Positions 22,557 through 54,228 of a stretch of DNA of 64,000 nt are shown here, piece by piece; positions within the stretch are counted from its first letter, which is position 1, and the number at the start of each line of letters is the position of its first letter. The notes beneath the pieces are model-generated. The model made no database searches. It had not been told where the DNA came from and saw only the letters and a list, made by a program, of their open reading frames with translations. The translations under genes and the position numbers were made by a program. Source of the stretch: a virus; IMG/VR virus record IMGVR_UViG_3300014613_000001, positions 113,774 to 177,773 of that record; one strand, 5' to 3'.

Positions 22557-22573
22557 AATAGGAGGAGTAATCC

Positions 22574-28354: not shown

Positions 28355-28378
28355 TGAGAGGAGATGTGGCACTATGAG

Positions 28379-28409
28379 GTCTGAGATCAGTAAGCCTCTC
28401 AGCTGGCAT
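28379..28409 (-). repeat. 31-nt hairpin repeat, copy B
   Basis: Reverse strand ATGCCAG CTGAGA GGCTTACTGA TCTCAG AC. Confidence 0.9.
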
Positions 28410-28426
28410 TAGCAAATCCTGATCAG

Positions 28427-28461
28427 AGCTTATGCTCGTCAGGTACATTGTCAATAAAAAA
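28427..28461 (-). promoter_or_regulatory. Leftward sigma70-like promoter feeding repeat B
   Basis: Reverse strand T-tract, TTGACA (28454-28449), 16 nt, TAAGCT (28432-28427). Confidence 0.65.
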
Positions 28462-28477
28462 GGCAAGGAGCAGAAGG

Positions 28478-28915
28478 ATGAGTGAAAATTGGCGGGAGAA
28501 GATTGCAGAACTCGAGCTCAAGGTCAAAGAACTCGAGCTCCAGCTTTCTACCGAGAAGGACAACGCCGCGGTGGACGCACTCGACGCCATCGTCCAGCTC
28601 TGCGGCCAAGGTGGGTGGGAGTACCCCGGTCAGGTTGTGAGAGACGTCGCAGCGTTGGTGGAGGAGCGCGACACGGCGCGCAAACGTTCGCACCTGAGGC
28701 GCGGGCAGCTCGGCCAATACGTGATGGCAGGTGAGCTGTACCGCGCACTCTACACACACCTGTACGTAGTGTACAAAGAGTGCGGAACGATTGTGGAGAA
28801 AGGCTCCTCCGCCAACACGGGCGAATACGCAGTGGCTATCCAGGAGATCGTGGCGCTGGTCTTGCGTGCTCTCGAGCAGGAGTATGACCGCGACCGGTCA
28901 AATCGAGATCAGTAA
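28478..28915 (+). CDS. Coiled-coil hypothetical protein
   Basis: AAGGAG RBS; contains W.YPGQVVRDV motif. Confidence 0.65.
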   Translation: MSENWREKIAELELKVKELELQLSTEKDNAAVDALDAIVQLCGQGGWEYPGQVVRDVAALVEERDTARKRSHLRRGQLGQYVMAGELYRALYTHLYVVYKECGTIVEKGSSANTGEYAVAIQEIVALVLRALEQEYDRDRSNRDQ

Positions 28916-28974
28916 GTCTCCTTGTCTTTAGGACGAGGAGTAAGGATCGTCTCCGAGATAATTGATCTGTTCTC

Positions 28975-29005
28975 ATACCAGCTGGGAGGTTTAGTGATCT
29001 CAGAC
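28975..29005 (+). repeat. 31-nt hairpin repeat, copy C
   Basis: ATACCAG CTGGGA GGTTTAGTGA TCTCAG AC. Confidence 0.9.
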
Positions 29006-29085
29006 GGAACCCAATACAGTCTAATTCTTGGGTATAAGGTGAACGAATTTGGAGACAGACTAAGCTCCTCAAGAAAGGTAGAAAA

Positions 29086-29532
29086 GTGGAAACTACGCAG
29101 TATCCAAGACCACGAGAGTTGTCGTTGAGTGGTGGCCAGAAGAGCGGCAAGACGCATGCCGCATTACTACTGGCCTGGGGGTATTCCCAGGTCGGCTACA
29201 CCGTGGCAGTGTTGTCTGCTAACGGTTCTCGCGGGGCGGCCACGCTGAGGAAGCTACCGAGGCTATCGGTTCCGGAGATACTCCTCAGCATCAAGCATCG
29301 TTGGCTGCTCAATGTCGCGCTGAAGCTGCTGAAGAGCGTCAAACTCGGAAACGTTCTTATCTTTTCGGGTGATCTTGCCCATCAGATGGCGCGCATCCTC
29401 CAGCGAGACTCACTCGACGTCCTGGTCGTCGATGTGGACTACCCCACCGATGAACTGATAGACCTGGTCACGATAGCCAGGAAGCAGTTCCAAGGTCTCT
29501 CGGTTATATGGACAACGGTGCAGTTCCGATGA
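29086..29532 (+). CDS. Small P-loop NTPase-like protein
   Basis: LSGGQKSGKTH Walker A; DVLVVD Walker B. Confidence 0.6.
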   Translation: METTQYPRPRELSLSGGQKSGKTHAALLLAWGYSQVGYTVAVLSANGSRGAATLRKLPRLSVPEILLSIKHRWLLNVALKLLKSVKLGNVLIFSGDLAHQMARILQRDSLDVLVVDVDYPTDELIDLVTIARKQFQGLSVIWTTVQFR

Positions 29533-29634
29533 TTATAGGATCAGTAAAGGCCAGCGAGCTTGATCCAAAATCGCTGCGTGCAGAAGACTATCTGTTCAAC
29601 CCTGACGAAGAGGCGCGCAAACTGGTAGGGTGTC

Positions 29635-29862
29635 ATGAGCAGGTTCACGGAGCAGGAGGTGGAGATCACTGTTGGACCTGTTACAGCTTGGGTACGCCAG
29701 ACGAAATCTCTGGGGGCCGAGATCGACCTGAGCGATCGTGGGATTCACGACGTGATTGTGATCCCAGAAAACCGGATGGTTGCCTACGCGGATGTGTTCG
29801 ATCTTCTATCGAAGGTACTCGGCGCGTGGCAGAGGGGAGGCAAGGAGCAGACGGATGGGTGA
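29635..29862 (+). CDS. Hypothetical protein
   Basis: 75-aa ORF coupled to the next gene. Confidence 0.5.
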   Translation: MSRFTEQEVEITVGPVTAWVRQTKSLGAEIDLSDRGIHDVIVIPENRMVAYADVFDLLSKVLGAWQRGGKEQTDG

Positions 29863-30334
29863 GAATTGGCGCGCGAAGCGCTGCCACGATTGCGGGTGCG
29901 GGCACGATGAGATTCACGAGCTTGGGTGTGATATGGAGCGTTGTCCATACTGCCTGGGACAACTGATCTCCTGTGATTGCGCCTACGAGCTGTTGGGATT
30001 GGTGGATCACGACGAGTATCCAGACACCGGAGGGCTTCCACCCAAGATATATCGCGGTGGCCTGTCCTCGGAGCAGGGAGAAAAGTGGCTTCAATTGATC
30101 AATGTAAGGGGTCGCATCCCCTATCAGAGCCCGGGGCAGCCGGGGATCGCGGACAACGTCTGGTCGGAGTTCGTCCATCCAGACGGCCACTGCTCCCTCT
30201 GTGGGAACTCAGGTGTCATTGACACACGAGGGCACGTAGAGACCGCAGCTGGTTGGAAGGTGGGGGCGAGGTGCTTCTGCATCTGCCCAAACGGGAGGGC
30301 GTGGAAGACCAGTACCGGTAACCCATCTCAATAG
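29855..30334 (+). CDS. Cys-rich hypothetical protein
   Basis: CHDC...H..GCD.ERCP.C.GQLISCDC and C-terminal C.LCGNSG.ID...C.CPNG. Confidence 0.65.
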   Translation: MGENWRAKRCHDCGCGHDEIHELGCDMERCPYCLGQLISCDCAYELLGLVDHDEYPDTGGLPPKIYRGGLSSEQGEKWLQLINVRGRIPYQSPGQPGIADNVWSEFVHPDGHCSLCGNSGVIDTRGHVETAAGWKVGARCFCICPNGRAWKTSTGNPSQ

Positions 30335-30349
30335 GGAAGCTGGATTAGA

Positions 30350-30736
30350 GTGATTGAATACTGGGCAGGCGAAGAGCCGGCCCAGCTCCACCGAGTCGGA
30401 ATCCTCTGGTGGTCAGAGGCCGACGGGCGGCTCATCGCCCGAGGGGGCTTCGACATGGCCGAAGGCTCGGCCGTTACGCTGACCGTGGTCTCCGACTCCC
30501 TCTCCGGGGAGAGGCGTTTCGACGGATCCGTCCACCCCGACCAGGTGGACGAGCTCCTTGACGCCCCGGAGGGCTACCCCCTCCGCATCGAAGAAAACTG
30601 CGGCCAGGCAGGCGAGACGTGGGCAGTCGCTGGGCCAGTCCCCCCGGAGTTTTCCTCGATTCCCCCCGGGTGGAGAATCGAGGAAAAGTGGGTGCACGGG
30701 CACCCGAGTTCATACTACGTAGTGAAGGCGATCTAG
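30350..30736 (+). CDS. Hypothetical protein, first gene of GC-rich island
   Basis: 128-aa ORF; GC-rich codon usage. Confidence 0.55.
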   Translation: MIEYWAGEEPAQLHRVGILWWSEADGRLIARGGFDMAEGSAVTLTVVSDSLSGERRFDGSVHPDQVDELLDAPEGYPLRIEENCGQAGETWAVAGPVPPEFSSIPPGWRIEEKWVHGHPSSYYVVKAI

Positions 30737-30773
30737 GTGCGTTGAGAGGGCCGAGAGGCCCAAGGAGATTGAG

Positions 30774-31137
30774 ATGAATTTTGCGAACCTGACCCCCCAC
30801 GCCATCGTCGTCCGCACGTCGGACGGCGACATCACGCTCGAGCCGACGACCCCGCCGGCTCGAGTCCAGAACACTGCAGGAAATTTCCTGCGGGAGATCG
30901 ACGGCGTCCCGATCTTCTCGGCTGACGTGCCCGGCAAGATTGAGGGGATCCCCCCCCTCACAAGAGGGCACGATGTATGTCGTGTCAGTCGTCGTGGCGG
31001 GGGCGCTGTCGCCCGAGCGACGCGTCGTGGGGGACGTAGTGGTCCCCGCCACCGGCCCGGCGGACGGGGCGATCCGATATTCAGATGGCCCGCGCCGGGG
31101 CCAGATCGAGGCCGTCACGCGGCTGAAGTTGGCGTGA
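30774..31137 (+). pseudogene. NLTPH-family phage protein frameshifted at a C8 run
   Basis: ORF 30774 N-half plus ORF 30940 C-half join as IEGIPPSQEGTMYVVS if one C is removed from 30950-30957. Confidence 0.7.
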
Positions 31138-31242
31138 CGACCGGCCCTGAGCACGGCCGAAAAAAACTGCTCATCTCGTCGCCGGTCAGATTGCTCGCGG
31201 CGGCGGGACCAAGGAAGGGCTAAGAGCCCAGAAGGAAGAGAG

Positions 31243-32523
31243 ATGACGAGGTACGTGGACCTAGACGCTGCGGCGTCCACATCCCCGCTGCCAGCAGTGG
31301 AGGATGCTGTTCGAGCCTTCCTCGCCGAGTACGGTAGTGTCCACCGGGGGAGTGGGCGCCACAGTAAATTGTCCACGGACGCCTATGACCACGCTCGTCG
31401 CGTGATCAGGCGTTTCGTGGGCGCCGGGGAGGAGGACTACGTCCTCTTCACCGGCAACACAACGGGGGCGATGAACGTCATCGCCCACCACCTCTCCTTC
31501 CTTCGGGGAGGGGTGGCGGTCAGCAGCCTGGAGCACAGCTCCTCGTTGCTGCCCTTCGTGAAAGCGGAGGGCGAGCGGGCGGTGCAAGGCCGCCAATTCG
31601 CACTGGAAGAGCTGGACTCTGTTGCCGAGCAGATCCAGCTCGCGGGTCGAAAGAATGTACACAAGTACATCATCGACCCGTTCCGCGGGATCGACCTGGA
31701 GAGCCTGGAAACTCTCCTGTCGACCCATAAGACGAAGGCGGTCGTCCTGACCGCGTCGTCGAACCTCACGGGGTACTGCCCCCCAATCCGTGAGGTTGCG
31801 CGCCTGGCTCACAGCCACGGTGCGCTGTTGGTCCTGGACGGATGCCAGTTCGTCCAGCACCACGTCCTCAACATGGAGGCTGAGGGCGTGGACTTCGTGG
31901 CCGCATCGGGCCACAAGTTCTATGCCCCCTACGGGGGTGGGTTTCTGGTAGGGCCGAAGTGGTTCTTCGACCGCTTCTTGCCCTACCAAATCGGTGGAGG
32001 CAACCTCCCGTACATCACGGGAGATGGCGAGTTTCTTCGGTTCAAGATCGAGCTTGCCCATGACCCCGGTACCCCGAACGCAGTCGGGGCCGTGGCCATG
32101 GCCGCCGCCCTCGAGGAGATGGAGAAGATCGGACTGGACCGGATCTTCTCGCACGAGAAGGCCCTCGCCATGCGGGCGCATGAGGGTCTCAGTTCCATCC
32201 CAGGAGTGGAGCTGTACGTAGAACGGGAGCGGTTGGGCACCGTCGTCCCGTTCAATCTCCGAGGGCAAGACCCCAAAGAGGTTGCCGAAATCCTCTCGAC
32301 GCAGTTTGACATCGGCGTTCGCGCCGGATCGTTCTGTGTCTATGAGGGCGTGCGGCAACTTCTCGGGATCACCCCCGAGGAGGACGCCCGAATCGCCGAG
32401 AGGGTTCGCCTCGGTGATACCAGCAGCATCCCGGGGCTCATCCGAGCCTCGGTGTGCTGGCACACGCGGACCGAGGACGTGGACCGTCTCATCGAGGCGG
32501 TTCGCGTGGTGGCAGGAGGATGA
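31243..32523 (+). CDS. Cysteine desulfurase-like PLP enzyme (aminotransferase class V, SufS-like)
   Basis: YVDLDAAAST; SGHK PLP lysine; GTPN; GVRAGSFC catalytic-Cys loop; IRAS. Confidence 0.85.
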   Translation: MTRYVDLDAAASTSPLPAVEDAVRAFLAEYGSVHRGSGRHSKLSTDAYDHARRVIRRFVGAGEEDYVLFTGNTTGAMNVIAHHLSFLRGGVAVSSLEHSSSLLPFVKAEGERAVQGRQFALEELDSVAEQIQLAGRKNVHKYIIDPFRGIDLESLETLLSTHKTKAVVLTASSNLTGYCPPIREVARLAHSHGALLVLDGCQFVQHHVLNMEAEGVDFVAASGHKFYAPYGGGFLVGPKWFFDRFLPYQIGGGNLPYITGDGEFLRFKIELAHDPGTPNAVGAVAMAAALEEMEKIGLDRIFSHEKALAMRAHEGLSSIPGVELYVERERLGTVVPFNLRGQDPKEVAEILSTQFDIGVRAGSFCVYEGVRQLLGITPEEDARIAERVRLGDTSSIPGLIRASVCWHTRTEDVDRLIEAVRVVAGG

Positions 32524-33662
32524 GTGCCGTCCTCAAGGCGCTGCGGGCCATGCCCGTGAGCGTCAACTGCTACCACGGTGACCCCACCCTCCAGTGGGGC
32601 AACACCGTTCAAAAATTGGAGGATCTCGCTGCCGAAGGCCACACGGGCCCGGTCAGCGTAATCACCAAGGGTGCCCTCGGCCCGGCGAGAGGTAGGAAGC
32701 TCGCTGAGCTGAAGGGGAGACTCCCGGGCCTGCTGGTGATGGTTTCCATCAGCGGACTAGGGAGGGAGTTCGAGAAGGCGGGACACGACCACCGGTACCG
32801 AGCTCTCGCCACCCTGCGGGAGGTGGGGGTCCCCGCCTTCGCGGCTGTCAGGCCGCTGACCCCTCCGTATAACACCACTCCAGAGGTGTTGTACGAGATC
32901 TTCTCTCGACTGCAAGCTGTCGGCTGCGAGACAGCTTGTGTGTCGGGGTTCCGAGGGGACTCATCCCTGATCGAGGCTATGGAGCCGTCGGCAGGGATCG
33001 AGTGGGTCTTGCGGGTGAAGCAGATGACGGGGTTCGACCTCGTCAAGCGGATCGCCGATCAATGCGGCGTCCGCCTGTTCACCCGTGTGTCCTGTTGTGC
33101 GTCCTACCTCACTGGGAGGACTGGGACGTACAACCCCTATTGGGGGTCGCCCCAGTTGGTTCGTTGCGAGGAGATCGGCTGTCCGCTGGTCGACTTCTGT
33201 GGACCAGTGGCCCCTGACCCAGAGGTCGTGTCCTGGCTTGAAAGAGTTGGATACGACCTTCGGGTGGAGCAGCGCTGCCAGGAGCGCTGCCGGTTCAGCG
33301 CGGACAACCGCCTGAACTGTAAGAGCTGCTGTACGACCTGCTTCGTGCAGCCGCAGCCCCGGGTGATTGTGCGCAACGCACGAACTCTCGGGGATTTGGC
33401 CTTCGTCAGGTTCGTTCTCGGCGGGACCCTTGCGGTCAAGCCGGGCATGATTGACGGAGGGGATCGAGACGTTGGGCGAGTCTCGGTTCTGAGTGAGCTC
33501 CTTGGGCAGGAGCTCCACTGCATCAATTCCTGGTGGGTGTGGGCCACCCGCAAGGAGTCCTGCTTCGGGTGCAGGTACTGTATCAGTACCCTCTACCCGG
33601 GGCAGGGCACGGTCGGCTGCCCCCCGGCTGACCTGGCCGACATGGTGGATAGTCATGTTTGA
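32520..33662 (+). CDS. Radical-SAM-like TIM-barrel protein lacking the N-terminal CX3CX2C, with Cys-rich C-terminus
   Basis: HGDP and VITKG segments parallel the neighbour's ITDP and LVTKW; C-terminal CKSCCTTC and CFGCRYC. Confidence 0.6.
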   Translation: MSAVLKALRAMPVSVNCYHGDPTLQWGNTVQKLEDLAAEGHTGPVSVITKGALGPARGRKLAELKGRLPGLLVMVSISGLGREFEKAGHDHRYRALATLREVGVPAFAAVRPLTPPYNTTPEVLYEIFSRLQAVGCETACVSGFRGDSSLIEAMEPSAGIEWVLRVKQMTGFDLVKRIADQCGVRLFTRVSCCASYLTGRTGTYNPYWGSPQLVRCEEIGCPLVDFCGPVAPDPEVVSWLERVGYDLRVEQRCQERCRFSADNRLNCKSCCTTCFVQPQPRVIVRNARTLGDLAFVRFVLGGTLAVKPGMIDGGDRDVGRVSVLSELLGQELHCINSWWVWATRKESCFGCRYCISTLYPGQGTVGCPPADLADMVDSHV

Positions 33663-34530
33663 ACCAGGAAAGCCGGCATGCCCTATCGCATGCCAGTATT
33701 GCTTCATCACGGAGCATGATACCCGGCGCGCGGTGTGGAACCGCGCTTCCATGGCGGGTGTGAACAAGGCGTGTACCTACGTCAATGTCCCGCCCTGGAT
33801 TCGCGAGGACGCCGATGCCCAGCGACGCTTTTCGGTGTTTCCCTGGGACCTGCTCAAAGGTGATGTGGTCGGTTTCACCGCGATCACCGATCCTTGCTGG
33901 CCCCGGCTGGAGCCACAACTCCGGGAATTCTTGGAGCGGGCCGGGACAGCGGCCAAAATGGTGACGCTCGTCACCAAATGGCCGCTGTCTCGCCGACAGG
34001 TTCGGTTCCTGTCCGATGTTCCGAATCTGTTCCTGGTGATCTCGATCACCGGGAACCCACCCCCAATAGAGGGGGTTCCCGTCTCCAAACACCTCGAAAC
34101 CCTTGAGAGGTGCAAAGATGCAGGGATCCCCTCACTCCCGATCGTGCACCCCTACATCAGTGGGGTGAGCGATCTGGGTTTTCTCCCCAACCTGATTGAG
34201 TTGGGGTACGACCAGGTAGGGGTAAAAGGCATCCGGTACTGCGACGCGCACATGGCGTCGTGGATGCCTTCCCTCTCCAGGGGGGCCTACCGTGGTCGTG
34301 AGGACGAGGAGGTGCTGCCAGAAGACGGCTGGCGCCAGCTCGTCGAGGACGCAGGGTTCACCCTGCGTTCTCCCAAGGATTGGTACCTCGAGCAGGTGTC
34401 AACCCTTGGTCCTCACCTAGAACGAGGTGAAGCGGAGAACCTGGTAGATCAGGTCTTCCGTCTCGCCAACGTGACATCATCGTCGGACGACGCTTCTGTC
34501 TGGGAAGCGGCCATTCGACGAAGGATGTAG
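33655..34530 (+). CDS. Radical SAM protein (spore photoproduct lyase-like architecture)
   Basis: CPIACQYC motif at the N-terminus; TDP, VTK, P.I.GVSD segments. Confidence 0.8.
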   Translation: MFEPGKPACPIACQYCFITEHDTRRAVWNRASMAGVNKACTYVNVPPWIREDADAQRRFSVFPWDLLKGDVVGFTAITDPCWPRLEPQLREFLERAGTAAKMVTLVTKWPLSRRQVRFLSDVPNLFLVISITGNPPPIEGVPVSKHLETLERCKDAGIPSLPIVHPYISGVSDLGFLPNLIELGYDQVGVKGIRYCDAHMASWMPSLSRGAYRGREDEEVLPEDGWRQLVEDAGFTLRSPKDWYLEQVSTLGPHLERGEAENLVDQVFRLANVTSSSDDASVWEAAIRRRM

Positions 34531-34572
34531 CTCTGGTACTGAGGTGAGCCGGGGAGACGGGGGGCAGACCCC

Positions 34573-34620
34573 CGCCCCCGCTCCTCGGGGGCTCGGGGCA
34601 GTGAGAGGGCCTGAAGGCCC
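34573..34620 (+). repeat. GC-rich two-hairpin leader element, copy 1
   Basis: 36-nt match (1 mismatch) to 35829-35864, then GGGCC-TGAA-GGCCC before the RBS. Confidence 0.85.
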
Positions 34621-34632
34621 GGAGGAGATGTC

Positions 34633-34878
34633 ATGAAAATAACGTTGAGAAATTCACTCCACAACACGTCCGTCCGCGTCGTCGCTCCCGAGAGCCTCGT
34701 GCTCTCTAAGAGCCAGGTCGCCAGGGCGCGCCGCGCCCTCTGCGGGATGCCCGGGTGCAAGTGCGCGAGCACGGCTCTCGGAACCTACGGCGAGAGTCCC
34801 GAGGGATCAGACGGCACCTTCTATGGTGTCGAGGACCTCTATGACGGTCGCGTTGAGCTGGTCGAGGTGACACGATGA
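34633..34878 (+). CDS. Hypothetical protein
   Basis: GGAGGAG RBS; TLRNSLHNTSV...RRALCGMPGCKC. Confidence 0.65.
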   Translation: MKITLRNSLHNTSVRVVAPESLVLSKSQVARARRALCGMPGCKCASTALGTYGESPEGSDGTFYGVEDLYDGRVELVEVTR

Positions 34879-35075
34879 CCACGACGGACCTGCAAGAGGC
34901 GGCCCTTGCCGCCCTGGCCCGAGCCCAGGAAGCAGAAGCCGCGTTGGCCCGGCTGGTGGCGGAGCACCAGCAGCTCGAGCGCCTGGTGCGCGAGCACTGG
35001 GATGCGTCTCGGCGGGCTGGTATCAGGCCCCACGACGAGCAGCTCCACGCTGGCTATCTCCGGCTGGAGCAGTAG
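34875..35075 (+). CDS. Coiled-coil hypothetical protein
   Basis: ATGA coupling. Confidence 0.55.
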   Translation: MTTTDLQEAALAALARAQEAEAALARLVAEHQQLERLVREHWDASRRAGIRPHDEQLHAGYLRLEQ

Positions 35076-35126
35076 GCCGAAACCGGGGCAACCCGGTCCG
35101 GGCGTAGGGCGCCCGCTGACGAGGCC
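35075..35126 (+). ncRNA. Type II hammerhead ribozyme
   Basis: GGCC-GAAA-CCGGG(GCAA)CCCGG-TC-CGGGCG(TAGGG)CGCCCG-CTGACGA-GGCC: full catalytic core with GUC cleavage triplet. Confidence 0.9.
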
Positions 35127-35148
35127 GTCAGAGCAAGGAGAAGAGAAA

Positions 35149-35616
35149 ATGAACGATCAGAATGAAGCCATCGAAACCACCGGCCGTATTCCTCGGATCG
35201 TCGGCCCCGACGGGGCAGAGGCAGTCGCCACCGAGGTCGGGATCTGCGCCGACTGCGGTTGCGCCGGCCTGGTGTCCGACTGGCCGGGACGCGGCGCGCT
35301 ATGCGCCGCAGCGGATGATGGCCGGCTGATCTGTGACGACTGCGCCGAGCTCGAGGCCGAGCCCGAGCCCATCCCGGAGCCCGTCCCGTGCACGAACGGG
35401 ATAGGCTACGACTGCCACTCGGGGGGCTATCTCCCCGAGTGGTTGATCGCGGCGGTGGCCTCAGCGATAGCCGAGGCCCACGACGACGGAGTGTCGTCGT
35501 GCGGCGGGGGCGCCCCCCTCGCCAACTGGGACCTCGACTGTCCCCTCTGGTCGTCGGAGGGGGAGCGTTCGGCCCGCCATCGGGCCGTCGAGGCCCTGAA
35601 GAAGGGGGTGAAGTGA
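35149..35616 (+). CDS. Cys-rich hypothetical protein downstream of the ribozyme
   Basis: AAGGAG RBS; CADC...CDDC. Confidence 0.6.
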   Translation: MNDQNEAIETTGRIPRIVGPDGAEAVATEVGICADCGCAGLVSDWPGRGALCAAADDGRLICDDCAELEAEPEPIPEPVPCTNGIGYDCHSGGYLPEWLIAAVASAIAEAHDDGVSSCGGGAPLANWDLDCPLWSSEGERSARHRAVEALKKGVK

Positions 35617-35807
35617 TGTATGTAGTTCTGTGTGATCTCGATGAAGGAGCTCATATCTCCTCCTGCCACGAGACGCGGGAGGAGGGGGAGGCGGCACTAG
35701 CCGCCGTCCCGCTCCGAGGAATAACACACGATTGGGCCTCGCTCGTCGAGGTCCATCCGGGGGTGCCCCCGCGGATGGTCGCGGGAAGATGCCCCGACGG
35801 AGAGTAG
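35616..35807 (+). CDS. Hypothetical protein
   Basis: Coupled start; HETREEGEAAL. Confidence 0.55.
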   Translation: MYVVLCDLDEGAHISSCHETREEGEAALAAVPLRGITHDWASLVEVHPGVPPRMVAGRCPDGE

Positions 35808-35828
35808 ACCTCTCCCGTCCCTGGTCAC

Positions 35829-35875
35829 CGCCCCCGCTTCTCGGGGGCTCGGGGCAGTGAGAGGCCGAGAGGCCC
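35829..35875 (+). repeat. GC-rich two-hairpin leader element, copy 2
   Basis: CGCCCCCGCTTCTCGGGGGCTCGGGGCAGTGAGAGG then GGCC-GAGA-GGCC. Confidence 0.85.
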
Positions 35876-35985
35876 AAGAGGAGCTGATATGGCAAGCAAA
35901 AGTGGTCTCCTCATCCCGATGGAGACTCGATCATCTTGCATGATCCACAACATGGTTCGCCAGATACCGAAGTGGGAGAGTCACA

Positions 35986-36925: not shown

Positions 36926-36940
36926 ATCAGCAGGTGCAAT

Positions 36941-38200: not shown

Positions 38201-38207
38201 GAACGGA

Positions 38208-39175: not shown

Positions 39176-39221
39176 TGGTGCGCCGCAGGCACTGAAGAGA
39201 GCAGCTGAGGAGCGAGAGAAG

Positions 39222-39745: not shown

Positions 39746-39755
39746 GAGAAGACAG

Positions 39756-40451
39756 ATGGGATGTGACATTCACTGCTACGTTGAGGTACGCGGCAGCGAC
39801 GGAAAATGGCAGTTCACGGACGACGGGTACTTTGCACGGCGACCAGATTATGGAGCAAATGATATAGGCACCCTCAAGGCGTGATGGAATGACAGGCCGA
39901 AGTATCTCTATGAAGGGAGAAACTATAATCTCTTCTCCATCTTGGCAAATGTACGGAACGGGTATGGTTTTGCCGGCTTCAGGACCGGAGATGGGTTTGT
40001 GCCAATCTTCAATCCCCGCGGCGTGCCCGAGGACGCAAGCCCTGAGTTTGTGGAGATCTCGGACGGGTGGGGTGGCGATGGGCACAGTCACAGCTACCTT
40101 ACCGTTCGGGAGTTGCTCGACTATGATTGGGATCAACAAACCCGGCTATGTGGCTGGGTTGGCGAGGAAGAATACGTCAAGTGGCGTGATAAAGGATCAC
40201 CGAGCAGCTGGGTCGGTGGCATTTCTGGCCAATGTGTCAAGCACGTAACAAACGAGGAGATGGAACAGCATATCTGCGAGAAGCAGGCTCACGTACCTCA
40301 GGCTCACAGTGCCGACGCTGTGTTTACAGAGGTCTCCTGGGGTACCTCGTATCGGGAGTGTGCTTCTGTGTTCTTGGAAGAGACCCTGCCCGCCCTCCAA
40401 GAACTCGGTCCGTCCAAAGATGTACGGATCGTTTTCTTCTTCGACAATTGA
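39756..40451 (+). pseudogene. MGCDIH-family phage protein interrupted by one in-frame TGA (39882-39884)
   Basis: MGCDIHCYVE... continues in frame through TGA into GRNYNLFSILANVRN...HSHSYLTVRELLDYDW. Confidence 0.75.
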
Positions 40452-40460
40452 TCTGTTCTC

Positions 40461-40491
40461 ATACCAGCTGGGAGGTTTAGTGATCCTAGAC
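40461..40491 (+). repeat. 31-nt hairpin repeat, copy D
   Basis: ATACCAG CTGGGA GGTTTAGTGA TCCTAG AC. Confidence 0.9.
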
Positions 40492-40540
40492 CCCACGCCA
40501 CGACACCTACCCTCGTTCATCACCAACAAAGGAGAAAATC

Positions 40541-42550
40541 ATGTTCAAAGAATTCAAGATTGCCATAGAGCGACAGTTCGAGTTGATGAAGGGTCATCAG
40601 CTCTTCCGCACAGAAGTGGAGAAAGAACTCCTGTGGCTCACCTACCTCGAGAGCTTCCCTCCGGGAACCAATCCACAGTACAAAGAACGCACCGAGTACG
40701 ACTGCCAGGCGTGCAAGAGCTTCATCCGCGCCGTGGGCAGCATGGTTGCCGTCATCGACGGTGAGCTGGTCTCCCTGTGGGACGTGGAGGTGAACCGCCC
40801 CTACGACAAGGTGGCCGCGGAGTTGTCGGAGCTTGCGAAGAGCGCTCCGATCAAGAACATCCTACTTCACGATTCCGCTTTGGTCGGTGTCGACAAGAAC
40901 TTTCAGGATCTCGATGGGGAGATACTGACCTGGGAGCACTTCTACCTCAAGCTCCCACCGTCCTGTGTCAATAATGATCGTGGAGCCGTTTACGCGGACA
41001 AGCGATCGCAGAAGGATGTCTTCGCTCGGTCGCTTCAAGAGATCACTATCGACGCCCTCGAGACCGTGGTCGATCTCATCGGGCAGAACTCGCTCTATCG
41101 GGGGGAGGAGCATCTGCACTCGGTGCAATCGTTCCAGAAGGAGAAGAAGGCCTACGACAAGCTCGAGACCCCTCGGGCACAAGAGCTCTTCTGCTGGCGG
41201 CAGGATCTGGGCCCGGCAGTTACGAGGATCCGTAGCTCTGCCATCGGCACGTTGCTGGTTGACCTCTCGGAGGGCGAGGATTTGGACGCCGCGGTACGGA
41301 TGTTCGAGTCCAAGGTGGCTCCCTCCAACTACAAGCGTCCCAAGTCTATCGTGACCAAAGCCATGATCGAGCGCGCTCGTAAGACCGTGGAGGAGCTTGG
41401 CTATGGTACGGCCCTCGGTCGTCGGTTCGCGGTCATTGACGACATCACGGTTGACAACGTGCTGTTCGCGAATCGCAACGCGCGGATCAGTATGAGCACC
41501 GACGTCTTTGACGATATGATCTCCGAGACGCCTGGGGATACGAAGCACCTCGACAGGGTCGAAAAGGTCGACATCAACGTCTTCCTCGAGAACATCCTCC
41601 CGAAGGCGACCTCGGTCGAGCTGCTGCTCGAGGGTCGTCACAGCGGCAACTTGGTGAACCTGGTCGCCCCGAGCGATCCAGAGTCCAAGCTGCTCTTCAA
41701 GTGGACCAACAACTTTTCATGGGCCTACGCGGGGGATCTGGCTGATTCGATCAAGGAAAGAGTCAAAGCGCGGGGCGGCAGTGTGACTGGCGATTTCCGC
41801 GCTTCGCTGGCGTGGTTCAACTCTGACGACCTGGATCTTCACCTGATTGAGCCTAGTGGATTCCGCATCTACTTCGGAAACAAAGGCTCCCCCGCAACGG
41901 GCGGTACACTAGATGTAGACATGAACGTCTACGCGTCGGGTCTAGGGTTCTCCCGAAACGCTGTCGAGAATATCACCTACGAATCCCGGAGCAGGATGCG
42001 CAGCGGAGTGTACAAGCTCATTGTCAACAACTACACGCATCGAGAACACATCGACGTGGGGTTCGAGGTCGAGCTCGAGTTCGACGGTCGGATCACGACT
42101 TTCGCCTGTAACCGAGAGGTCCGTTATAAGGAGGACGTGGTGGTGGCGGTCTTCTCCTATTCACCGAGCGAGGGCATCAAGATTCTGCAGTCTCTGCCGA
42201 TGCAGAGCGTCTCGAGGACGCTGTGGAATCTACCGACCGAGAAGTTCCACCCCGTCACCATCGCTCTGCTGTCGCCCAACCACTGGGATAACCGTCCCAC
42301 CGGCAACAAGCACTACTTCTTCATGTTGCAGGATTGCAAACGGGAAGGAAGCTCGAGGGGCTTCTTCAATGAGCAGCTCTCGGATGATCTTCGAGAACAT
42401 AGAAAGGTGTTCGAGATTCTCGGGGCCAAGATGAGGACAGAGGAGGAGGGCGAGCAGCTCAGCGGGCTCGGCTTCTCTTCAACACAGCGGAGCAGCGTGT
42501 ACGCCAAGGTGACTGGTTCGTTCACCCGAATCGTCAATGTCACGTTCTAG
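40541..42550 (+). CDS. Large conserved phage protein with YfaP/DUF2135-like C-terminal domain
   Basis: 669 aa; YDCQACKSFIR; WFNSDDLDLHLIEP...GGTLDVDMN...AVENI. Confidence 0.75.
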   Translation: MFKEFKIAIERQFELMKGHQLFRTEVEKELLWLTYLESFPPGTNPQYKERTEYDCQACKSFIRAVGSMVAVIDGELVSLWDVEVNRPYDKVAAELSELAKSAPIKNILLHDSALVGVDKNFQDLDGEILTWEHFYLKLPPSCVNNDRGAVYADKRSQKDVFARSLQEITIDALETVVDLIGQNSLYRGEEHLHSVQSFQKEKKAYDKLETPRAQELFCWRQDLGPAVTRIRSSAIGTLLVDLSEGEDLDAAVRMFESKVAPSNYKRPKSIVTKAMIERARKTVEELGYGTALGRRFAVIDDITVDNVLFANRNARISMSTDVFDDMISETPGDTKHLDRVEKVDINVFLENILPKATSVELLLEGRHSGNLVNLVAPSDPESKLLFKWTNNFSWAYAGDLADSIKERVKARGGSVTGDFRASLAWFNSDDLDLHLIEPSGFRIYFGNKGSPATGGTLDVDMNVYASGLGFSRNAVENITYESRSRMRSGVYKLIVNNYTHREHIDVGFEVELEFDGRITTFACNREVRYKEDVVVAVFSYSPSEGIKILQSLPMQSVSRTLWNLPTEKFHPVTIALLSPNHWDNRPTGNKHYFFMLQDCKREGSSRGFFNEQLSDDLREHRKVFEILGAKMRTEEEGEQLSGLGFSSTQRSSVYAKVTGSFTRIVNVTF

Positions 42551-42580
42551 TCTGAGATCAATAAGCCTCTCAGCTGGCAT
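42550..42580 (-). repeat. 31-nt hairpin repeat, copy E
   Basis: Reverse strand ATGCCAG CTGAGA GGCTTATTGA TCTCAG AC; overlaps the preceding TAG. Confidence 0.9.
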
Positions 42581-42597
42581 TAGCAAATCCTGATCAG

Positions 42598-42632
42598 AGC
42601 TTATGCTCGTCAGGTACATTGTCAATAAAAAA
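42598..42632 (-). promoter_or_regulatory. Leftward sigma70-like promoter feeding repeat E
   Basis: Identical to 28427-28461: TTGACA-16 nt-TAAGCT. Confidence 0.65.
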
Positions 42633-42637
42633 CATGT

Positions 42638-42668
42638 ATGCCTGCTGGGAGGCTTAGTGATCCCAGAC
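42638..42668 (+). repeat. 31-nt hairpin repeat, copy F
   Basis: ATGCCTG CTGGGA GGCTTAGTGA TCCCAG AC. Confidence 0.9.
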
Positions 42669-42714
42669 TATAGGAGAAAACGCGTGTGTCTGAGACCAGA
42701 AGGAGAGAGAGAAC

Positions 42715-42936
42715 ATGAGTGAACGTGCGCCAGATGGCATGAGCAGGGAAACATGGGAAGCCGTCGTCTCAGACGGGTTTGGTGTGGCGATCAAGAATGA
42801 TGCCGGGCAGTGGGTGAGGGTCGATCCGAAGTCGGTCTTCATCTACGATGCTCGTCAGGAGGAGCCCCACTTCTATGGCGATGACGGACCACCCGGCCGG
42901 GTAATCAGGGACAGGAGCTGGGGAGGAACCGAGTAG
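42715..42936 (+). CDS. Hypothetical protein
   Basis: AAGGAG RBS. Confidence 0.55.
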   Translation: MSERAPDGMSRETWEAVVSDGFGVAIKNDAGQWVRVDPKSVFIYDARQEEPHFYGDDGPPGRVIRDRSWGGTE

Positions 42937-42952
42937 ATTCCCCAGCAGAGAA

Positions 42953-42974
42953 AGAGAGAGAGAGAGAGAGAGAG
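42953..42974 (+). repeat. (AG)11 simple sequence repeat in a ribosome-binding region
   Basis: Directly upstream of ATG 42978. Confidence 0.9.
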
Positions 42975-42977
42975 AAC

Positions 42978-43499
42978 ATGAGTGAAGAGATCAGCCCGAT
43001 TGGACCGATGAGAGTGCAACTAGAGAAGGACGATTATACGTTCCCCCTGAAAAACGTTGTCCCGTGGGAGGACTGGAAGAAGATCACGGAGACCATTCCC
43101 GAGGATATGTGCTGGCGTAAATCAGCACTGCGTCAGAATGGGGTGTTCGACAGCTTGAAGCTCGGTAACGCTGTTGCGTGTTCGAGTCACACATCCAAGA
43201 GCTGCAAGCTGCCCGTGGTTCGAGGGGTCGTGGCGCCCGGGGTCGTCGTGATCATCCGGGGTAATTTCTATGACTGGAAAGTTAGTGTCATCAGCGATCA
43301 TCCTCTCCCGGGGATCGACGACACCTACCTCTTCGAACCAGAGACGCATCACAGGTCCGTCTACTTCGAGGGCTTCGATAATGCCTGGTGCTTCGGCAGC
43401 TACAAGAACAATCAGCAGCAGTTCTCGGTAGAGCTCGAGTATGACCCACTGCGGCTGTACACTTTCGTTCGAGAACTGCGCCGCGTCAGTACCCGCTGA
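42978..43499 (+). CDS. Hypothetical phage protein
   Basis: VVGxHTSKS-like segment (ACSSHTSKSCKLPV); RGNFYDWKVSV; YFEGF. Confidence 0.65.
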   Translation: MSEEISPIGPMRVQLEKDDYTFPLKNVVPWEDWKKITETIPEDMCWRKSALRQNGVFDSLKLGNAVACSSHTSKSCKLPVVRGVVAPGVVVIIRGNFYDWKVSVISDHPLPGIDDTYLFEPETHHRSVYFEGFDNAWCFGSYKNNQQQFSVELEYDPLRLYTFVRELRRVSTR

Positions 43500-43508
43500 C
43501 CAACGCGT

Positions 43509-43539
43509 ATGCCAGCTGGGAGGCTTAGTGATCCCAGAC
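43509..43539 (+). repeat. 31-nt hairpin repeat, copy G
   Basis: ATGCCAG CTGGGA GGCTTAGTGA TCCCAG AC. Confidence 0.9.
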
Positions 43540-43597
43540 GGGACCCCGCAGTCGGCCTCCGCCCTACCTAAATAGTGATCGGGAGGTACCGTGAACA

Positions 43598-43984
43598 ATG
43601 GAAGATAAATACCGGGACTGGATCGACGCGAATGTAGACGACGATGGGTTCGGGCTCTGCCAAGAGTATGCAGAGTTGATGGCAGGGGAATTCCCTGAGC
43701 TCAGGGCCGTCTATGGATACTACAATATCGATGACCGGTCGTTTCCGCACTGCTGGTGTGTGGACACAGACGGAAATGTCATAGATCCGACCGTAGAGCA
43801 GTTTGGAACCGGCGGCCAGTATGTACAGAAGAGGAACATCACCGACATACCAGATCAACTGCGTAAGATCGCTCACGAGGCGGCCAAGCTCATCGTGAGC
43901 GAAGATAAAGCAGGAACTGTGTACGAGGCATGGCTCGTGCTCTGCATCATCCGGAATTTCGAGAAATTGATCGCGCGAGAGTAG
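43598..43984 (+). CDS. Small protein with Cys...His-x-Trp (papain/transglutaminase-like) pattern
   Basis: GLC...PHCWC...IDPTVEQF. Confidence 0.55.
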   Translation: MEDKYRDWIDANVDDDGFGLCQEYAELMAGEFPELRAVYGYYNIDDRSFPHCWCVDTDGNVIDPTVEQFGTGGQYVQKRNITDIPDQLRKIAHEAAKLIVSEDKAGTVYEAWLVLCIIRNFEKLIARE

Positions 43985-43994
43985 ACCGTGTGAT

Positions 43995-44025
43995 CTCTGA
44001 GATCGATAAGCCCCTCAGATGGCAT
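43995..44025 (-). repeat. 31-nt hairpin repeat, copy H
   Basis: Reverse strand ATGCCAT CTGAGG GGCTTATCGA TCTCAG AG. Confidence 0.85.
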
Positions 44026-44042
44026 TAGCAAATCTTGATCAG

Positions 44043-44076
44043 AGCTTACACGCGTCAGGTGCGTTGTCAACAAAAA
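44043..44076 (-). promoter_or_regulatory. Leftward sigma70-like promoter feeding repeat H
   Basis: TTGACA (44070-44065), 16 nt, TAAGCT (44048-44043); spacer diverged from B/E while both boxes are kept. Confidence 0.65.
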
Positions 44077-44087
44077 GGGAGAAGAAC

Positions 44088-44480
44088 ATGTTCGAGAAAG
44101 CAGCACGATTGAAGTTGCGGTACGACACCGGTCGTGGCCGCCTAAGCGTTGAAGATCTGTGGGACCTGCCCCTGCTCAGCAATAAGCACGGCGTCGTGTG
44201 CTTGGACGATGTAGCCAAGGAACTCCATCGTGAGATGAAGGACAGCGACGAAGAGAGCTTCGTGATCCAGACATCTGAGCCTAACGAGGAGCTCAAGCTC
44301 AAGTTCGAGATCGTCAAGCACATCATCCGCGTTCGGCTCGCCGAGGAGGCAGCCAAGAAGAACGCCGCACTGATCGCGGAGAAGAAGCAGCAGATCATGG
44401 CGATCATGGTCGAGAAAGAGACGGAGACCCTGAAGGGGTCGAGCCTCGAGGAGCTTCGAGCTCTTCTCGCAGCCCTGTAG
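44088..44480 (+). CDS. Conserved phage protein (MFEKAARLKLRY...SVEDLWDL family)
   Basis: Recognisable N-terminal motif; C-terminal coiled coil. Confidence 0.7.
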   Translation: MFEKAARLKLRYDTGRGRLSVEDLWDLPLLSNKHGVVCLDDVAKELHREMKDSDEESFVIQTSEPNEELKLKFEIVKHIIRVRLAEEAAKKNAALIAEKKQQIMAIMVEKETETLKGSSLEELRALLAAL

Positions 44481-44496
44481 GCCTGAAACTTCATCC

Positions 44497-44539
44497 GGGG
44501 CACAGCTCTTCTGACAGCCGGTCAGGGGGGCTGTGCCCC
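44497..44539. other. Long intergenic hairpin before the methyltransferase gene
   Basis: GGGGCACAGC-TCTT-CTGAC / GTCAG-GGGG-GCTGTGCCCC. Confidence 0.7.
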
Positions 44540-44559
44540 ATCGTCCCGTAGGAGATCAA

Positions 44560-46236
44560 GTGCTAAATAAACAAACCCATGGCGCGATATTCACGGCGTT
44601 CTTTCCGTTCTGCGGGTTGGGTGCCGGTGCGTTGGGTTTTCTTGACGCTCGGGTTACCGTCCTTGGTCGTCCCGCCAAGTTCGTCAGTCTCGGTGGGATC
44701 GACATTGATCAAGAAGCGTGTCAGGACTTCGAACGACTCACAGGAAGCCCTGCTCTCTGCGCTGATATGCACGACCTCACAGCTCATGACATCAGGAGCT
44801 TCGTTGGTCAGCGCGCTCCTGATGTCGTATTCAGCTCGCCGCCCTGTAAATCATTCAGCGCGTTGCTCTCCGACAAGATCGCGTCGCAAGAGAAATATCA
44901 GAAACTCAGTCGTCTGGTCATTCGGTGGGTGGAGCTCATGATCCACACCTGGTCTGATGAGCCTCCACGCCTGATCATCATGGAGAACGTTCCGCGCATC
45001 ACCTCGAGGGGCAGGAGATTCCTCGAGGAAGTACACGCGATTCTGGAAAATGCGGGGTACTGTATCCACGAGGGTTTTCACGATTGCGGAGAGATTGGCG
45101 GCTTGGCGCAGCATCGTCGACGGTTTCTCATGGTCGCCCGTCTACCCCGTCGCTGTCCCCCCTTCCTCTATAAGCCGCAGCGCCTACGGGTCCGCGGGTG
45201 CGGTGAAGTCCTCGAGAAGTTGCCCGTCCCAGGTACTTTGGAGGCGGCTCACTTTGGTAAGTTGCATCACTTACCGGGGATCAGTTGGATCAACTGGGTA
45301 CGCTTGGCGCTGATCCCGGCCGGCGGCGATTGGAGAGATCTCCCGCGTGTGCTGGAGTCTCAACTTGGGAGCATGGTAGACAACCCCAACAGGTACACGA
45401 ACAAGTATCGTGTGGAGGACTGGAGTGCTCCGGCCAAGACCGTCATCGGAGCGACTCGACCCGGGTCCGGGGCAGCCTGTGTTGCTGACCCTAGAACCGC
45501 AGAGTGGCATTCTGGAGTCCTCGGGGTACGTGAGTGGAACAAACCGGCCGGAGCCGTTACCAGCCGCTCAGGGCCCAGCAATGGGGAGTTCTCCGTCGCT
45601 GACCCGAGGCTCACCTGTAGCCCTTGGGGCGGTGCATACGGTGTCAGCGGATGGGAGGATCCTGCTCCGACCGTGACCGGGGGCCGTCTGGACAATTCCG
45701 GGGTCTCGGTGGCCGACATCCGGGTGAAACAAGCCTTCGATCATGGGTATAAGGTACTCAGATGGACTGATCCTAGTTTCACCGTCGCCGGGCAGACCTC
45801 GTGTGGTTATGGAGCGTTCCAGGTAGCAGATCCCCGCGTAGATCAAGCTGTAGGGCGCCGTATTGTGTTCGAACAGCTTCTATCTGTTTGGGATGGCGAC
45901 CCCAAAAAAGCTCCGCCCTTCATACCAGTGATCGTCTGCCCCGATAATTGCTGGCATCGCCCAATGACGCCGATGGAGCTGGCGATTTTACAAGGCTTAC
46001 CGACGGAGCTGGATGGGCGCCCCCTCGGGCTGTCGGGCAACTCCGTGAGTCGATGGAGAGAAAGAATAGGGAACGCGGTCCCGGTGCAGACCGCTGAAGC
46101 TGTAGCCACAAAGATGCTGATCGCGTTGCTGGAAACAGAGCTCTACGGTGCCGATCCTGTCCGTCGCGGTGAGGAGAGGTGGGTCGAGGAGCTCTTTGGA
46201 GGATCAAATGGTAGACGAGGAACATGTGGAGCCTGA
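44560..46236 (+). CDS. C5 cytosine DNA methyltransferase
   Basis: Motif I FCGLGAG; IV SPPCKSFS; VI MENVP; VIII QHRRR; X RIGNAVP; long repeated variable region. Confidence 0.9.
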   Translation: MLNKQTHGAIFTAFFPFCGLGAGALGFLDARVTVLGRPAKFVSLGGIDIDQEACQDFERLTGSPALCADMHDLTAHDIRSFVGQRAPDVVFSSPPCKSFSALLSDKIASQEKYQKLSRLVIRWVELMIHTWSDEPPRLIIMENVPRITSRGRRFLEEVHAILENAGYCIHEGFHDCGEIGGLAQHRRRFLMVARLPRRCPPFLYKPQRLRVRGCGEVLEKLPVPGTLEAAHFGKLHHLPGISWINWVRLALIPAGGDWRDLPRVLESQLGSMVDNPNRYTNKYRVEDWSAPAKTVIGATRPGSGAACVADPRTAEWHSGVLGVREWNKPAGAVTSRSGPSNGEFSVADPRLTCSPWGGAYGVSGWEDPAPTVTGGRLDNSGVSVADIRVKQAFDHGYKVLRWTDPSFTVAGQTSCGYGAFQVADPRVDQAVGRRIVFEQLLSVWDGDPKKAPPFIPVIVCPDNCWHRPMTPMELAILQGLPTELDGRPLGLSGNSVSRWRERIGNAVPVQTAEAVATKMLIALLETELYGADPVRRGEERWVEELFGGSNGRRGTCGA

Positions 46237-46531
46237 AGAAGAGGGTAGCGAACTTCCCGAGAATTGGGAGGGGGAGCCGGACACTCCTCCGCCTGCCTGG
46301 TGGAGATTCCATCATGCTGATTGCGGGATAGCGTACCGAGGGTGTTCGCCCGAATGTCCGAAGGACGTCTACGAGAAAACAGGGAAATGGATTGGCCCCT
46401 CGCGCACGAGGGTCTACATCCATGATCAACTGGTCAATCAGGCTGCGAGATTCCTGAATGGAGAGGAGTCGGCGCCTCTGGAGCCTCTGCAGCACGTCGG
46501 ACCGCTATCCGAGAAGAGGAGGGTCAAGTGA
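46208..46531 (+). CDS. Hypothetical protein
   Basis: GGAGG RBS; HHADC.I...C...CP. Confidence 0.55.
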   Translation: MVDEEHVEPEEEGSELPENWEGEPDTPPPAWWRFHHADCGIAYRGCSPECPKDVYEKTGKWIGPSRTRVYIHDQLVNQAARFLNGEESAPLEPLQHVGPLSEKRRVK

Positions 46532-46962
46532 TCGAGCTGAACAAGGAATGGAATCTTCGAGTCGCGTGGGCCGAGGTGTGCTCCGGGTCCGGGTGGCGCA
46601 ATGAGATCATCTATGCCGTGGTCAGTCGAGCTGGTGTCAACCAGCCAGAATTGATCGTCTTGCAGTCTGACGAGCAGACCGAGGAGATCCGTGTGCTGTT
46701 TGACGTCTCCGCGGTCGTCGCTCAAGATATGACCCGGTTGGCCGCTGACGCGGTCCGGCAAAAGTTGGAGGCTGCGGGGGGCTGTACGGTGTGCACGTGC
46801 GGTAAAACTCTGCCGCTGCACCTGCTCGGTCTCAACATCACGAAGCATGTCTGCTCGTGTGGCAAGGAGTACAGGGATGAAGGCGAGGTCTTTGTATGCC
46901 GCGGGATGGGTTTCAACCCATCTACCGGTATGGGTGACCCCGAGAAAAGAAAGGTCAAATGA
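46528..46962 (+). CDS. Hypothetical protein with C-terminal Cys motifs
   Basis: CTCG...CSCG. Confidence 0.55.
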   Translation: MIELNKEWNLRVAWAEVCSGSGWRNEIIYAVVSRAGVNQPELIVLQSDEQTEEIRVLFDVSAVVAQDMTRLAADAVRQKLEAAGGCTVCTCGKTLPLHLLGLNITKHVCSCGKEYRDEGEVFVCRGMGFNPSTGMGDPEKRKVK

Positions 46963-47189
46963 TTCAGTTTCATGAGACGGTCATGGGCAATAGGTTTTTC
47001 TCAAAGCACATGCCAGAGTTGATCAAGGTTCTGGGGAGAATTGCTTGTGCGTTGGAGGAGTCGAATCTGTACGCGAGAGCTGAGCCGCCTGAGATCGATA
47101 AGCCTCTCAGCGGGCAGGTGCGTTGTCAGCAAAAAAGGAGATCAGATGCGGAAGGTCGTGACGAGGGAGCCGAACCAGATCCAATGTGA
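46959..47189 (+). CDS. Small hypothetical protein whose 3' end runs through repeat I
   Basis: FHETVMGNRFF...MPELIK. Confidence 0.55.
   Translation: MIQFHETVMGNRFFSKHMPELIKVLGRIACALEESNLYARAEPPEIDKPLSGQVRCQQKRRSDAEGRDEGAEPDPM
47087..47117 (-). repeat. 31-nt hairpin repeat, copy I (promoter partly deleted)
   Basis: Reverse strand CTGCCCG CTGAGA GGCTTATCGA TCTCAG GC; 33 nt missing relative to H. Confidence 0.85.
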
Positions 47190-54149: not shown

Positions 54150-54228
54150 AGCCGTCGTCGGCAGGCTCAACGCGATAGGAGACGATGGGACGCCGCCGTG
54201 TGCTACGATCTGATTAGGGGCTGTTTTC

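Follow-up and report, generated by a model that had tools for sequence, protein, structure and literature searches.

Why would a phage keep, between genes that run almost uniformly in one direction, short repeated units whose promoter-like site points in the other? The question is raised by IMG/VR virus record IMGVR_UViG_3300014613_000001, a virus record of 177,773 bp with direct terminal repeats that is rated complete, and in particular by positions 113,774 to 177,773, the 64,000 nucleotides (nt) that were analyzed here as a whole and are called the window (genome coordinate = window coordinate + 113,773). An initial annotation of the window, made from its letters alone, had described an 80-bp module that was proposed to fire a promoter leftward into a hairpin acting as RNA. 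Judged by sequence comparison, the repeated module of 80 to 90 bases is real: it consists of a bacterial-type promoter-like site followed by one full repeat of CRISPR (clustered regularly interspaced short palindromic repeat) systems that employ Cas12m, and it points against the surrounding genes. The phage itself encodes a Cas12m homologue, and the modules are candidate small-RNA genes for that protein.

Anatomy and distribution of the module

On its own strand, the full module reads T-tract, TTGACA, 16 nt, TAAGCT, 11 nt, and a 37-nt element with a hairpin, ending in GAC. The window holds three full modules (B, E, and H), one deletion derivative (K), and one decayed remnant in sense orientation; beyond it, a pattern search and an nhmmer profile turned up two more full copies, A2k (genome 1838-1928, minus strand) and M16k (genome 16815-16905, plus strand). 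The full copies fall into two subfamilies, M16k/B/E and A2k/H, and B, E, and M16k are nearly identical, with 1 to 2 differences in 91 nt. The description of the copies in the initial annotation proved accurate. B and E, 14 kb apart, are 99% identical over 83 nt (28379-28461 versus 42550-42632), with one difference, in the loop, and a diverged third copy (43995-44077) is 84% identical to B/E. Each full copy has the minus-strand order that it gave, with 17 nt between TAAGCT and a 31-nt hairpin repeat, and MAFFT alignment of the fourth copy, 47087-47144, reproduces both the loss of 33 nt, including the -10 box, and the change of the -35 box to CTGACA.

Its statement that the surrounding genes lie on the plus strand also holds. 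This orientation is fixed by PHROG matches (40541-42550, E 8e-256; 44088-44480, E 2e-42; and 44533-46236), and a codon-usage gene caller trained on long open reading frames places 100 of the 106 window genes on the plus strand and M16k within a minus-strand gene block. All five intact copies are antisense, each between a stop codon and the next ribosome-binding site. The proteins flanking the modules are unrelated to one another, so the module is a unit with sharp borders that is kept on its own; an origin as part of a duplicated gene cassette was ruled out by the same lack of paralogy among flanking genes.

The hairpin repeat is far more common than the full module. Its pattern was matched seven times in the window versus zero times in 100 shuffles, and the whole genome contains 37 repeat copies, 31 sense to the local genes and 6 antisense. 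They lie at genome positions 1.8 to 17 kb, 67 kb, and 135 to 177 kb, with none at 18 to 66 kb or 68 to 134 kb; joined through the terminal repeat, the two repeat-bearing end regions form one continuous block of ∼60 kb. Damaged repeats are also found in the copies that have lost a box (K and the sense remnant).

The element is a type V-M CRISPR repeat

Comparison with other Cas12m loci indicates that the module's 37-nt element is a full-length type V-M CRISPR repeat. The closest relative of the phage Cas12m (55% identity), on a 9.3-kb viral contig, has at its locus a canonical array of ten 36-nt repeats of the form GTCGCAATGCCAG-CCGAAC-GGCTTGGAA-GTTCGG-AC. The module reads TTGCTAATGCCAG-CTGAGA-GGCTTACTGA-TCTCAG-AC, and the two can be aligned in the 5' part, in the stem, at GGCUU where the loop begins, and at the closing AC. 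The same repeat plan recurs at seven more Cas12m loci, and all of these repeats end in GAC. A covariance model built from the repeats of eight foreign Cas12m loci alone was scanned against 92 kb of the phage and gave 21 matches, of which 19 are phage repeat copies, all in repeat sense. The E-values are moderate: B, E, and M16k, matched over model positions 1 to 36, score 19 bits (E about 0.03), and the top-scoring sense copies come to 6e-4. The layout is the same as that of the solved CRISPR RNA (crRNA) of Cas12m2, i.e., G(-23):A(-2), six Watson-Crick pairs, C(-1), and the guide on the 3' side (PMC10442227). The module loop has 10 nt versus about 9 nt expected for V-M repeats.

This identity changes two proposals of the initial annotation. 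A leftward promoter with the hairpin acting as RNA remains plausible, given the boxes and the wobble pairs described below, but the CRISPR nature of the hairpin repeat had been missed. Likewise, the "short leader" does exist as a minus-strand stretch before the hairpin, but most of it is the 5' part of the full-length 36- to 37-nt V-M repeat.

The phage repeats do not form a regular array with unique spacers: the modules are solitary, and the repeat clusters that flank cas12m have periods of 39 to 55 nt and similar "spacers," whereas the arrays of relatives have periods of 72 to 73 nt. Rfam returned no family at its gathering threshold for the module, only chance-level matches. A solitary V-M repeat (covariance model, 17.9 bits) was also seen in a relative, L019, at 9861-9897, ∼95 nt upstream of its own cas12m start, and solo repeats preceding cas12m may be common in that clade.

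Two coding explanations of the repeat were considered and set aside. A small protein starting from the AUG in AAUGCC was rejected, as this AUG belongs to the repeat consensus of other Cas12m arrays. On the gene strand, a 12-codon frame (MRSEI.KPL.WH*) crosses the reverse complement of the repeat in A2k, B, and M16k (window 28362-28417; genome 1826-1876 and 16867-16922); present in three of the five copies and absent from E and H, it is probably incidental.

The stem favors an RNA read against the genes

Summed over all copies, the six stem positions show 208 Watson-Crick pairs on either strand; the remainder differs, with 10 G.U pairs and 4 mismatches in repeat sense versus 3 and 11, respectively, in the reverse complement. 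This excess of wobble pairs favors an RNA read in repeat sense; for B, E, and H that means a minus-strand RNA. Compensated variants are seen in the stem (CTGGGA/TCCCAG in 17 copies, CTGAGA/TCTCAG in 7, and CCGGGA/TCCCGG in 2). The A2k/H subfamily has a closing pair that is G.U on the minus strand versus A.C on the gene strand; in both copies a U replaces the otherwise invariant G before the stem and can pair with A(-2), and the fold of H shows it as a seventh, U-A pair.

A promoter-like site confined to antisense copies

The proposal that only inverted copies bear promoter-like boxes was borne out genome-wide: TTGACA-16-TAAGCT is found in five of the six antisense copies and in none of the 31 sense copies (Fisher's exact p about 1e-5; our calculation), the sixth antisense copy being K. 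In these five copies the site has 9 of 12 consensus positions and a constant distance of 24 nt from the hairpin, and no sense copy has a promoter score above 8/12. The -35 box matches at six of six positions, the spacer is 16 nt in both subfamilies, and the T-tract abuts the -35 box. We calculate from base composition a chance of about 1e-3 for such a site in a 90-nt unit. A strict search of the whole genome for TTGACN-16/18-TANNNT gave nine sites, about the base-composition expectation, and five of the nine are the modules. Counting the start as the 7th nt downstream of the -10 box places it about 5 nt ahead of the repeat, and the minus-strand starts so predicted for B, E, and H (Table 1) agree with those of the initial annotation.

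The boxes are also the quieter part of the site. Between H and B/E, 5 of the 16 spacer positions have changed and none of the 12 in the boxes, as had been noticed earlier. Of the seven fixed differences between the subfamilies, four lie in the 16-nt spacer and none in the boxes (binomial p about 0.02; our calculation), and one further spacer position varies inside a subfamily. The rightward site TTAGCA-16-TATGCT, correctly reported for B and E and as absent from H, is present in M16k as well; in both A2k and H its second box reads TACACG. The conserved direction, if any, is leftward.

Searches around the site gave no similarity between the module promoter and the array leader of the closest relative, and no intrinsic terminator downstream that is consistent across module copies. 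The Caulobacter-type promoter consensus was a poor fit and was dropped.

Table 1. Positions of module parts and related repeats in the window
Feature	Position	Strand	Description
Module B repeat	28379..28415	-	37-nt full-length V-M repeat; covariance model positions 1-36, 19 bits, E 0.028
Module B repeat parts		-	5' UUGCUAAUGCCAG, 6-bp stem CUGAGA/UCUCAG, 10-nt loop, 3' AC
Module B promoter-like site	28427..28454	-	-35 TTGACA 28449-28454, 16-nt spacer, -10 TAAGCT 28427-28432
Module B T-tract	28455..28461		predicted start near 28420
Module B "guide" position	28359..28378	-	20 nt 3' of repeat; intergenic, begins 4 nt past stop codon 28352-28354
Module E repeat	42550..42586	-	full-length V-M repeat, 19.1 bits, E 0.026; flush with TAG stop of phrog_1735 gene 40541-42550
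Module E promoter-like site	42598..42625	-	-35 42620-42625, -10 42598-42603; T-tract 42626-42632; predicted start near 42591
Module E "guide" position	42530..42549	-	antisense to final codons of gene 40541-42550; no second genome match
Sense repeat copy adjoining module E	42636..42668	+	16.2 bits; inverted pair with E
Module H repeat	43995..44031	-	variant: U for otherwise invariant G before stem, G.U closing pair, 3' AG not AC
Module H promoter-like site	44043..44070	-	-35 44065-44070, -10 44043-44048; predicted start near 44036
Module K	47087..47144	-	deletion derivative; hairpin 47089-47110 kept; nhmmer E 3e-5
Module K losses			33 nt including -10 box and 5' part of repeat; -35 CTGACA 47124-47129; 3' end GC not AC
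Decayed sense remnant	54204..54267	+	recognizable from -10 box to repeat, no -35; nhmmer E 4e-5, covariance model 16.1 bits
Decayed sense remnant, changes	54204..54267	+	loop 1 nt short; 3' arm ATCTCAG present three times

The phage Cas12m

The Cas12m homologue (genome 3458-5305, 615 amino acids) aligns end to end with solved Cas12m structures (PDB 23vw_A, E 6e-40 over residues 11-574; Cas12m2, E 1.5e-14). Its RuvC domain has Asn at motif I (AINCGWR), Glu at motif II, and Asp at motif III, and the motif I Asn is invariant among the five closest relatives of the protein. Because of this Asn, the phage Cas12m probably binds DNA and processes RNA rather than cutting. Of the residues with which Cas12m2 contacts the protospacer-adjacent motif (PAM), W152 and Q197 are conserved in the phage protein and Y141 and N156 are not. 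The phage genome contains no cas1 or cas2.

The sequence following the repeat

The stop codon of the upstream gene is abutted or overlapped by the repeat in E and A2k, which puts the "guide" antisense to that gene's last codons; in H the repeat lies ∼10 nt past the stop codon. The earlier prediction of a transcript tail antisense to the 3' end of the upstream gene fits the position of E but not that of B, whose repeat is followed by 20 nt of intergenic sequence. B and M16k have their initial 12 "guide" nucleotides in common. The first 13 nt of the A2k guide have an exact match at window 25553-25565 (minus strand), flanked 5' by TCT, where the ribosome-binding site and ATG of a small gene lie; such a match is compatible with chance (0.024 per mock guide, or ∼0.9 expected over 37 guides).

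Proposed function and alternative explanations

The sequence establishes the anatomy of the module, the CRISPR identity of its repeat, the presence of cas12m, and the exclusive link between boxes and antisense orientation; promoter activity, binding by Cas12m, and the role of the resulting particle are inferred. We give an even chance to the module being a stand-alone, promoter-driven, solo-repeat small-RNA gene that serves the phage's own Cas12m. A sigma-70-type promoter would fire against the surrounding genes and start transcription ∼5 nt before the full-length V-M repeat. The transcript would open with a complete Cas12m handle, comprising a G (or U), the 6-bp stem, the 10-nt loop, and AC, and would continue into sequence antisense to the end or 3' flank of the upstream gene. 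The phage Cas12m would be expected to bind this RNA and to process it into a crRNA-like particle. The 31 sense repeat copies would be transcribed within mRNAs; transcription of mRNAs could not cover the antisense copies, which may explain why only these carry a promoter. The particle might control the operon mRNA in cis as an antisense RNA or have it cleaved between two genes, titrate Cas12m, or target DNA that is not part of this genome.

A more ambitious version, which we regard as unlikely, is an internal control circuit derived from CRISPR, in which five antisense crRNA genes are transcribed by the host RNA polymerase and a nuclease-dead Cas12m acts on the phage's own operons. Particles at a gene-gene boundary would then pair with the 3' end of the mRNA or, bound to DNA, form a programmable roadblock or insulator, and the 31 sense repeats would be Cas12m processing sites in mRNAs. 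If true, a virus would be using a CRISPR effector to regulate its own genes rather than for defense.

Several observations weigh against a promoter-driven small RNA for Cas12m. The -10 box matches the consensus at only three of six positions (T1, A2, and T6) and fails the standard scan rule of 4/6 per hexamer, and elsewhere in the phage sigma-70-like sites are no more frequent than expected by chance. The unchanged boxes are not significant alone at the ∼9% divergence between subfamilies (p about 0.33). A 4-bp inverted repeat is kept in the spacer (ATGY-N9-GCAT in B/E/M16k and ACGC-N9-GTGT in A2k/H); an operator or a structure could be the further constraint behind it. In stability the hairpin is unexceptional (z of -0.3 to -0.8), and it is taken as real because of covariation and homology rather than energy. 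No guide had a second genome match at ≤4 mismatches in 18 nt, exact seed matches of guides in the phage genome were no commoner than those of mock guides, and comparison of the guides with phage and plasmid collections gave only chance-level matches, none with an E below 1. Known Cas12m PAMs are T/C-rich (TTN for Cas12m2), whereas the template locus has GAC as its flank; self-binding is not expected from these PAMs, which may not be those of the phage Cas12m. Finally, exact-pattern scans found no related phage or contig with the repeat or module among viral and metagenome contigs, and no repeat in the genomes of 185,579 species. The lone viral-contig match (L003) was a chance match within a gene.

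As a separate observation, the inverted repeat in the spacer (window 42598-42625 and equivalents) has wobble pairs on the repeat-sense strand only, among two to three variants, too few to judge.

Some of the same facts would suit other explanations. The modules could be inert relics, i.e., a leader-repeat junction scattered by recombination and now decaying, with boxes that were inherited from an old array leader or arose by chance. The near identity of three copies suggests recent copying, decayed copies exist in K and the sense remnant, standalone repeats readily arise by recombination (10.1101/2023.03.03.530964), and box conservation is, as noted, insufficient alone. Against scattering stand a set of intact copies that includes no sense copy and in which every member sits between a stop codon and the next ribosome-binding site, the retention of boxes, repeat, and a spacing of exactly 16 nt in two diverged subfamilies, and the presence of five modules in a compact phage genome; we consider relics rather unlikely. 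Alternatively, the same transcription unit could be an RNA anti-CRISPR (Racr), whose repeat RNAs soak up the V-M Cas12m of a host or plasmid and whose antisense tail is irrelevant. This would fit a conserved unit that stops exactly at the repeat in E and H, the failure to find guide targets in the phage genome or the phage and plasmid collections, and the enrichment of subtype V-M on plasmids. It becomes distinctly unlikely in view of the phage's own cognate cas12m and 31 further mRNA-borne repeats, and of the absence of the repeat from the bacterial genomes scanned, which leaves no known host array to mimic. With its own cas12m, the phage also departs from the solitary repeat units in their lack of a cas gene.

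Reading the module in the gene direction, as an anti-repeat or post-gene hairpin with a weak rightward promoter (B, E, and M16k) and an A-rich leader to the ribosome-binding site, seems quite improbable. In five of six copies the A-tract does run into GGAG and a start codon within 10 to 20 nt, the rightward site scores 8/12 and lies 37 nt before the sense repeat adjoining E, and the PeSL elements of T4-type phages are repeated intergenic promoter-plus-stem-loop cassettes (PMC2839356 and PMC4122927). But the rightward -10 box is destroyed in two of the five full copies, whereas the leftward boxes are intact in all five; the A2k/H hairpin has its A.C mismatch in the gene sense and G.U on the other strand; the hairpin is followed by no U-tract and is therefore no intrinsic terminator; and the downstream genes are unrelated. 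An origin of the inverted pair at E, with flanking TA, as an IS630/mariner-type miniature inverted-repeat transposable element was rejected as very improbable. Complementarity between its arms is 27/31, and each end is bordered on the outside by TA, but each arm alone occurs >30 times without a partner, the other modules lack a second arm or TA flanks, and the arms are Cas12m CRISPR repeats, the left one being part of a 91-nt unit that is present five times. No 119-bp E unit with target-site duplications was found in the scanned viral and metagenome contigs or the genomes of the 185,579 species.

Phage units of a promoter and a single repeat are known as decoys against host CRISPR systems, and Cas12m is known to silence genes by binding DNA, with no cleavage. 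Here, one complete phage genome combines promoter-bearing solo repeats, Cas12m, and dozens of repeats in its own operons. A solo-repeat RNA gene serving the phage Cas12m leads to definite predictions: the promoter-bearing copies should give discrete small RNAs with defined 5' ends, a protein partner, and an orientation rule. If these were confirmed, a virus would be seen supplying guide-like RNAs to a domesticated CRISPR effector, and the promoter, handle, and effector would be compact natural parts for studies of Cas12m loading. If the boxes are inactive, the modules still mark the spread and decay of CRISPR repeats within a viral genome.

Other features of the window

An AT-rich palindrome at 22485-22559 has arms of 37 nt that are 92% complementary, with 1 nt between them. 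An unlike repeat, GC-rich, intergenic, and 64 nt long, occurs at 34572-34635 and 35828-35891 (83% identical) and ends at an ATG. An AG-dinucleotide run at 42949-42986 directly precedes the ATG at 42978, and its last 26 nt are similar to the sequence that precedes the ATG at 42715.

Comparison with known systems

What is added here is the antisense-only promoter rule, two extra copies, two subfamilies, the identity of the "leader," and the negative target searches. Of known elements, the solitary repeat units or Racrs and the crRNA-like regulators come closest. Like the modules, the former (PMC10651486) are viral units in which one CRISPR-like repeat directly follows a predicted promoter. The differences are that the present phage encodes the cognate Cas12m and 31 more repeats in its operons and that its five copies are all antisense to genes and flush with the upstream stop codon, with no host array known.

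The V-M CRISPR-Cas systems (MmCas12m2, GoCas12m, and MsCas12m; PMC10442227 and PMC11013384) have a homologous effector that needs no trans-activating crRNA (tracrRNA) and a 36- to 37-nt repeat that has AAUGCCWG, a stem of 6 bp, GGCUU in the loop, and GAC as its 3' end, and processing within the repeat would likewise leave a handle 5' of the guide. In contrast to these systems, the phage has no regular unique-spacer array and no cas1/cas2, its repeats stand singly between genes, the loop has 10 rather than 9 nt, and the repeat has its own promoter-like site ∼5 nt upstream and no known protospacer. The crRNA-like regulators (CreA/CreR, tracr-L, scaRNA, and regulatory mini-arrays; 10.1101/2023.03.03.530964) share the principle of a standalone repeat that, with its adjacent sequence, recruits an effector for a role outside immunity; their guides partly match a PAM-flanked promoter, usually of a cas gene, whereas no such match was found here.

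Myxophage MV-1 (bioRxiv 10.64898/2026.09.14.751636) also encodes a phage Cas12m without an adaptation module, and no spacer targets were found for it. Unlike the present phage, with its dispersed promoter-bearing solo repeats and Asn at RuvC motif I, MV-1 has a conventional adjoining array (one consensus repeat and eight spacers) and a D-E-D RuvC. The PeSLs of T4-type phages (PMC2839356 and PMC4122927) resemble the modules as repeated intergenic units of ∼70 to 90 nt with a host-type promoter and a stem-loop in variable regions of a large phage genome. PeSLs act in the gene sense, as a terminator plus early promoter, whereas all five modules have a CRISPR repeat as their stem-loop, and their intact boxes point against the genes.

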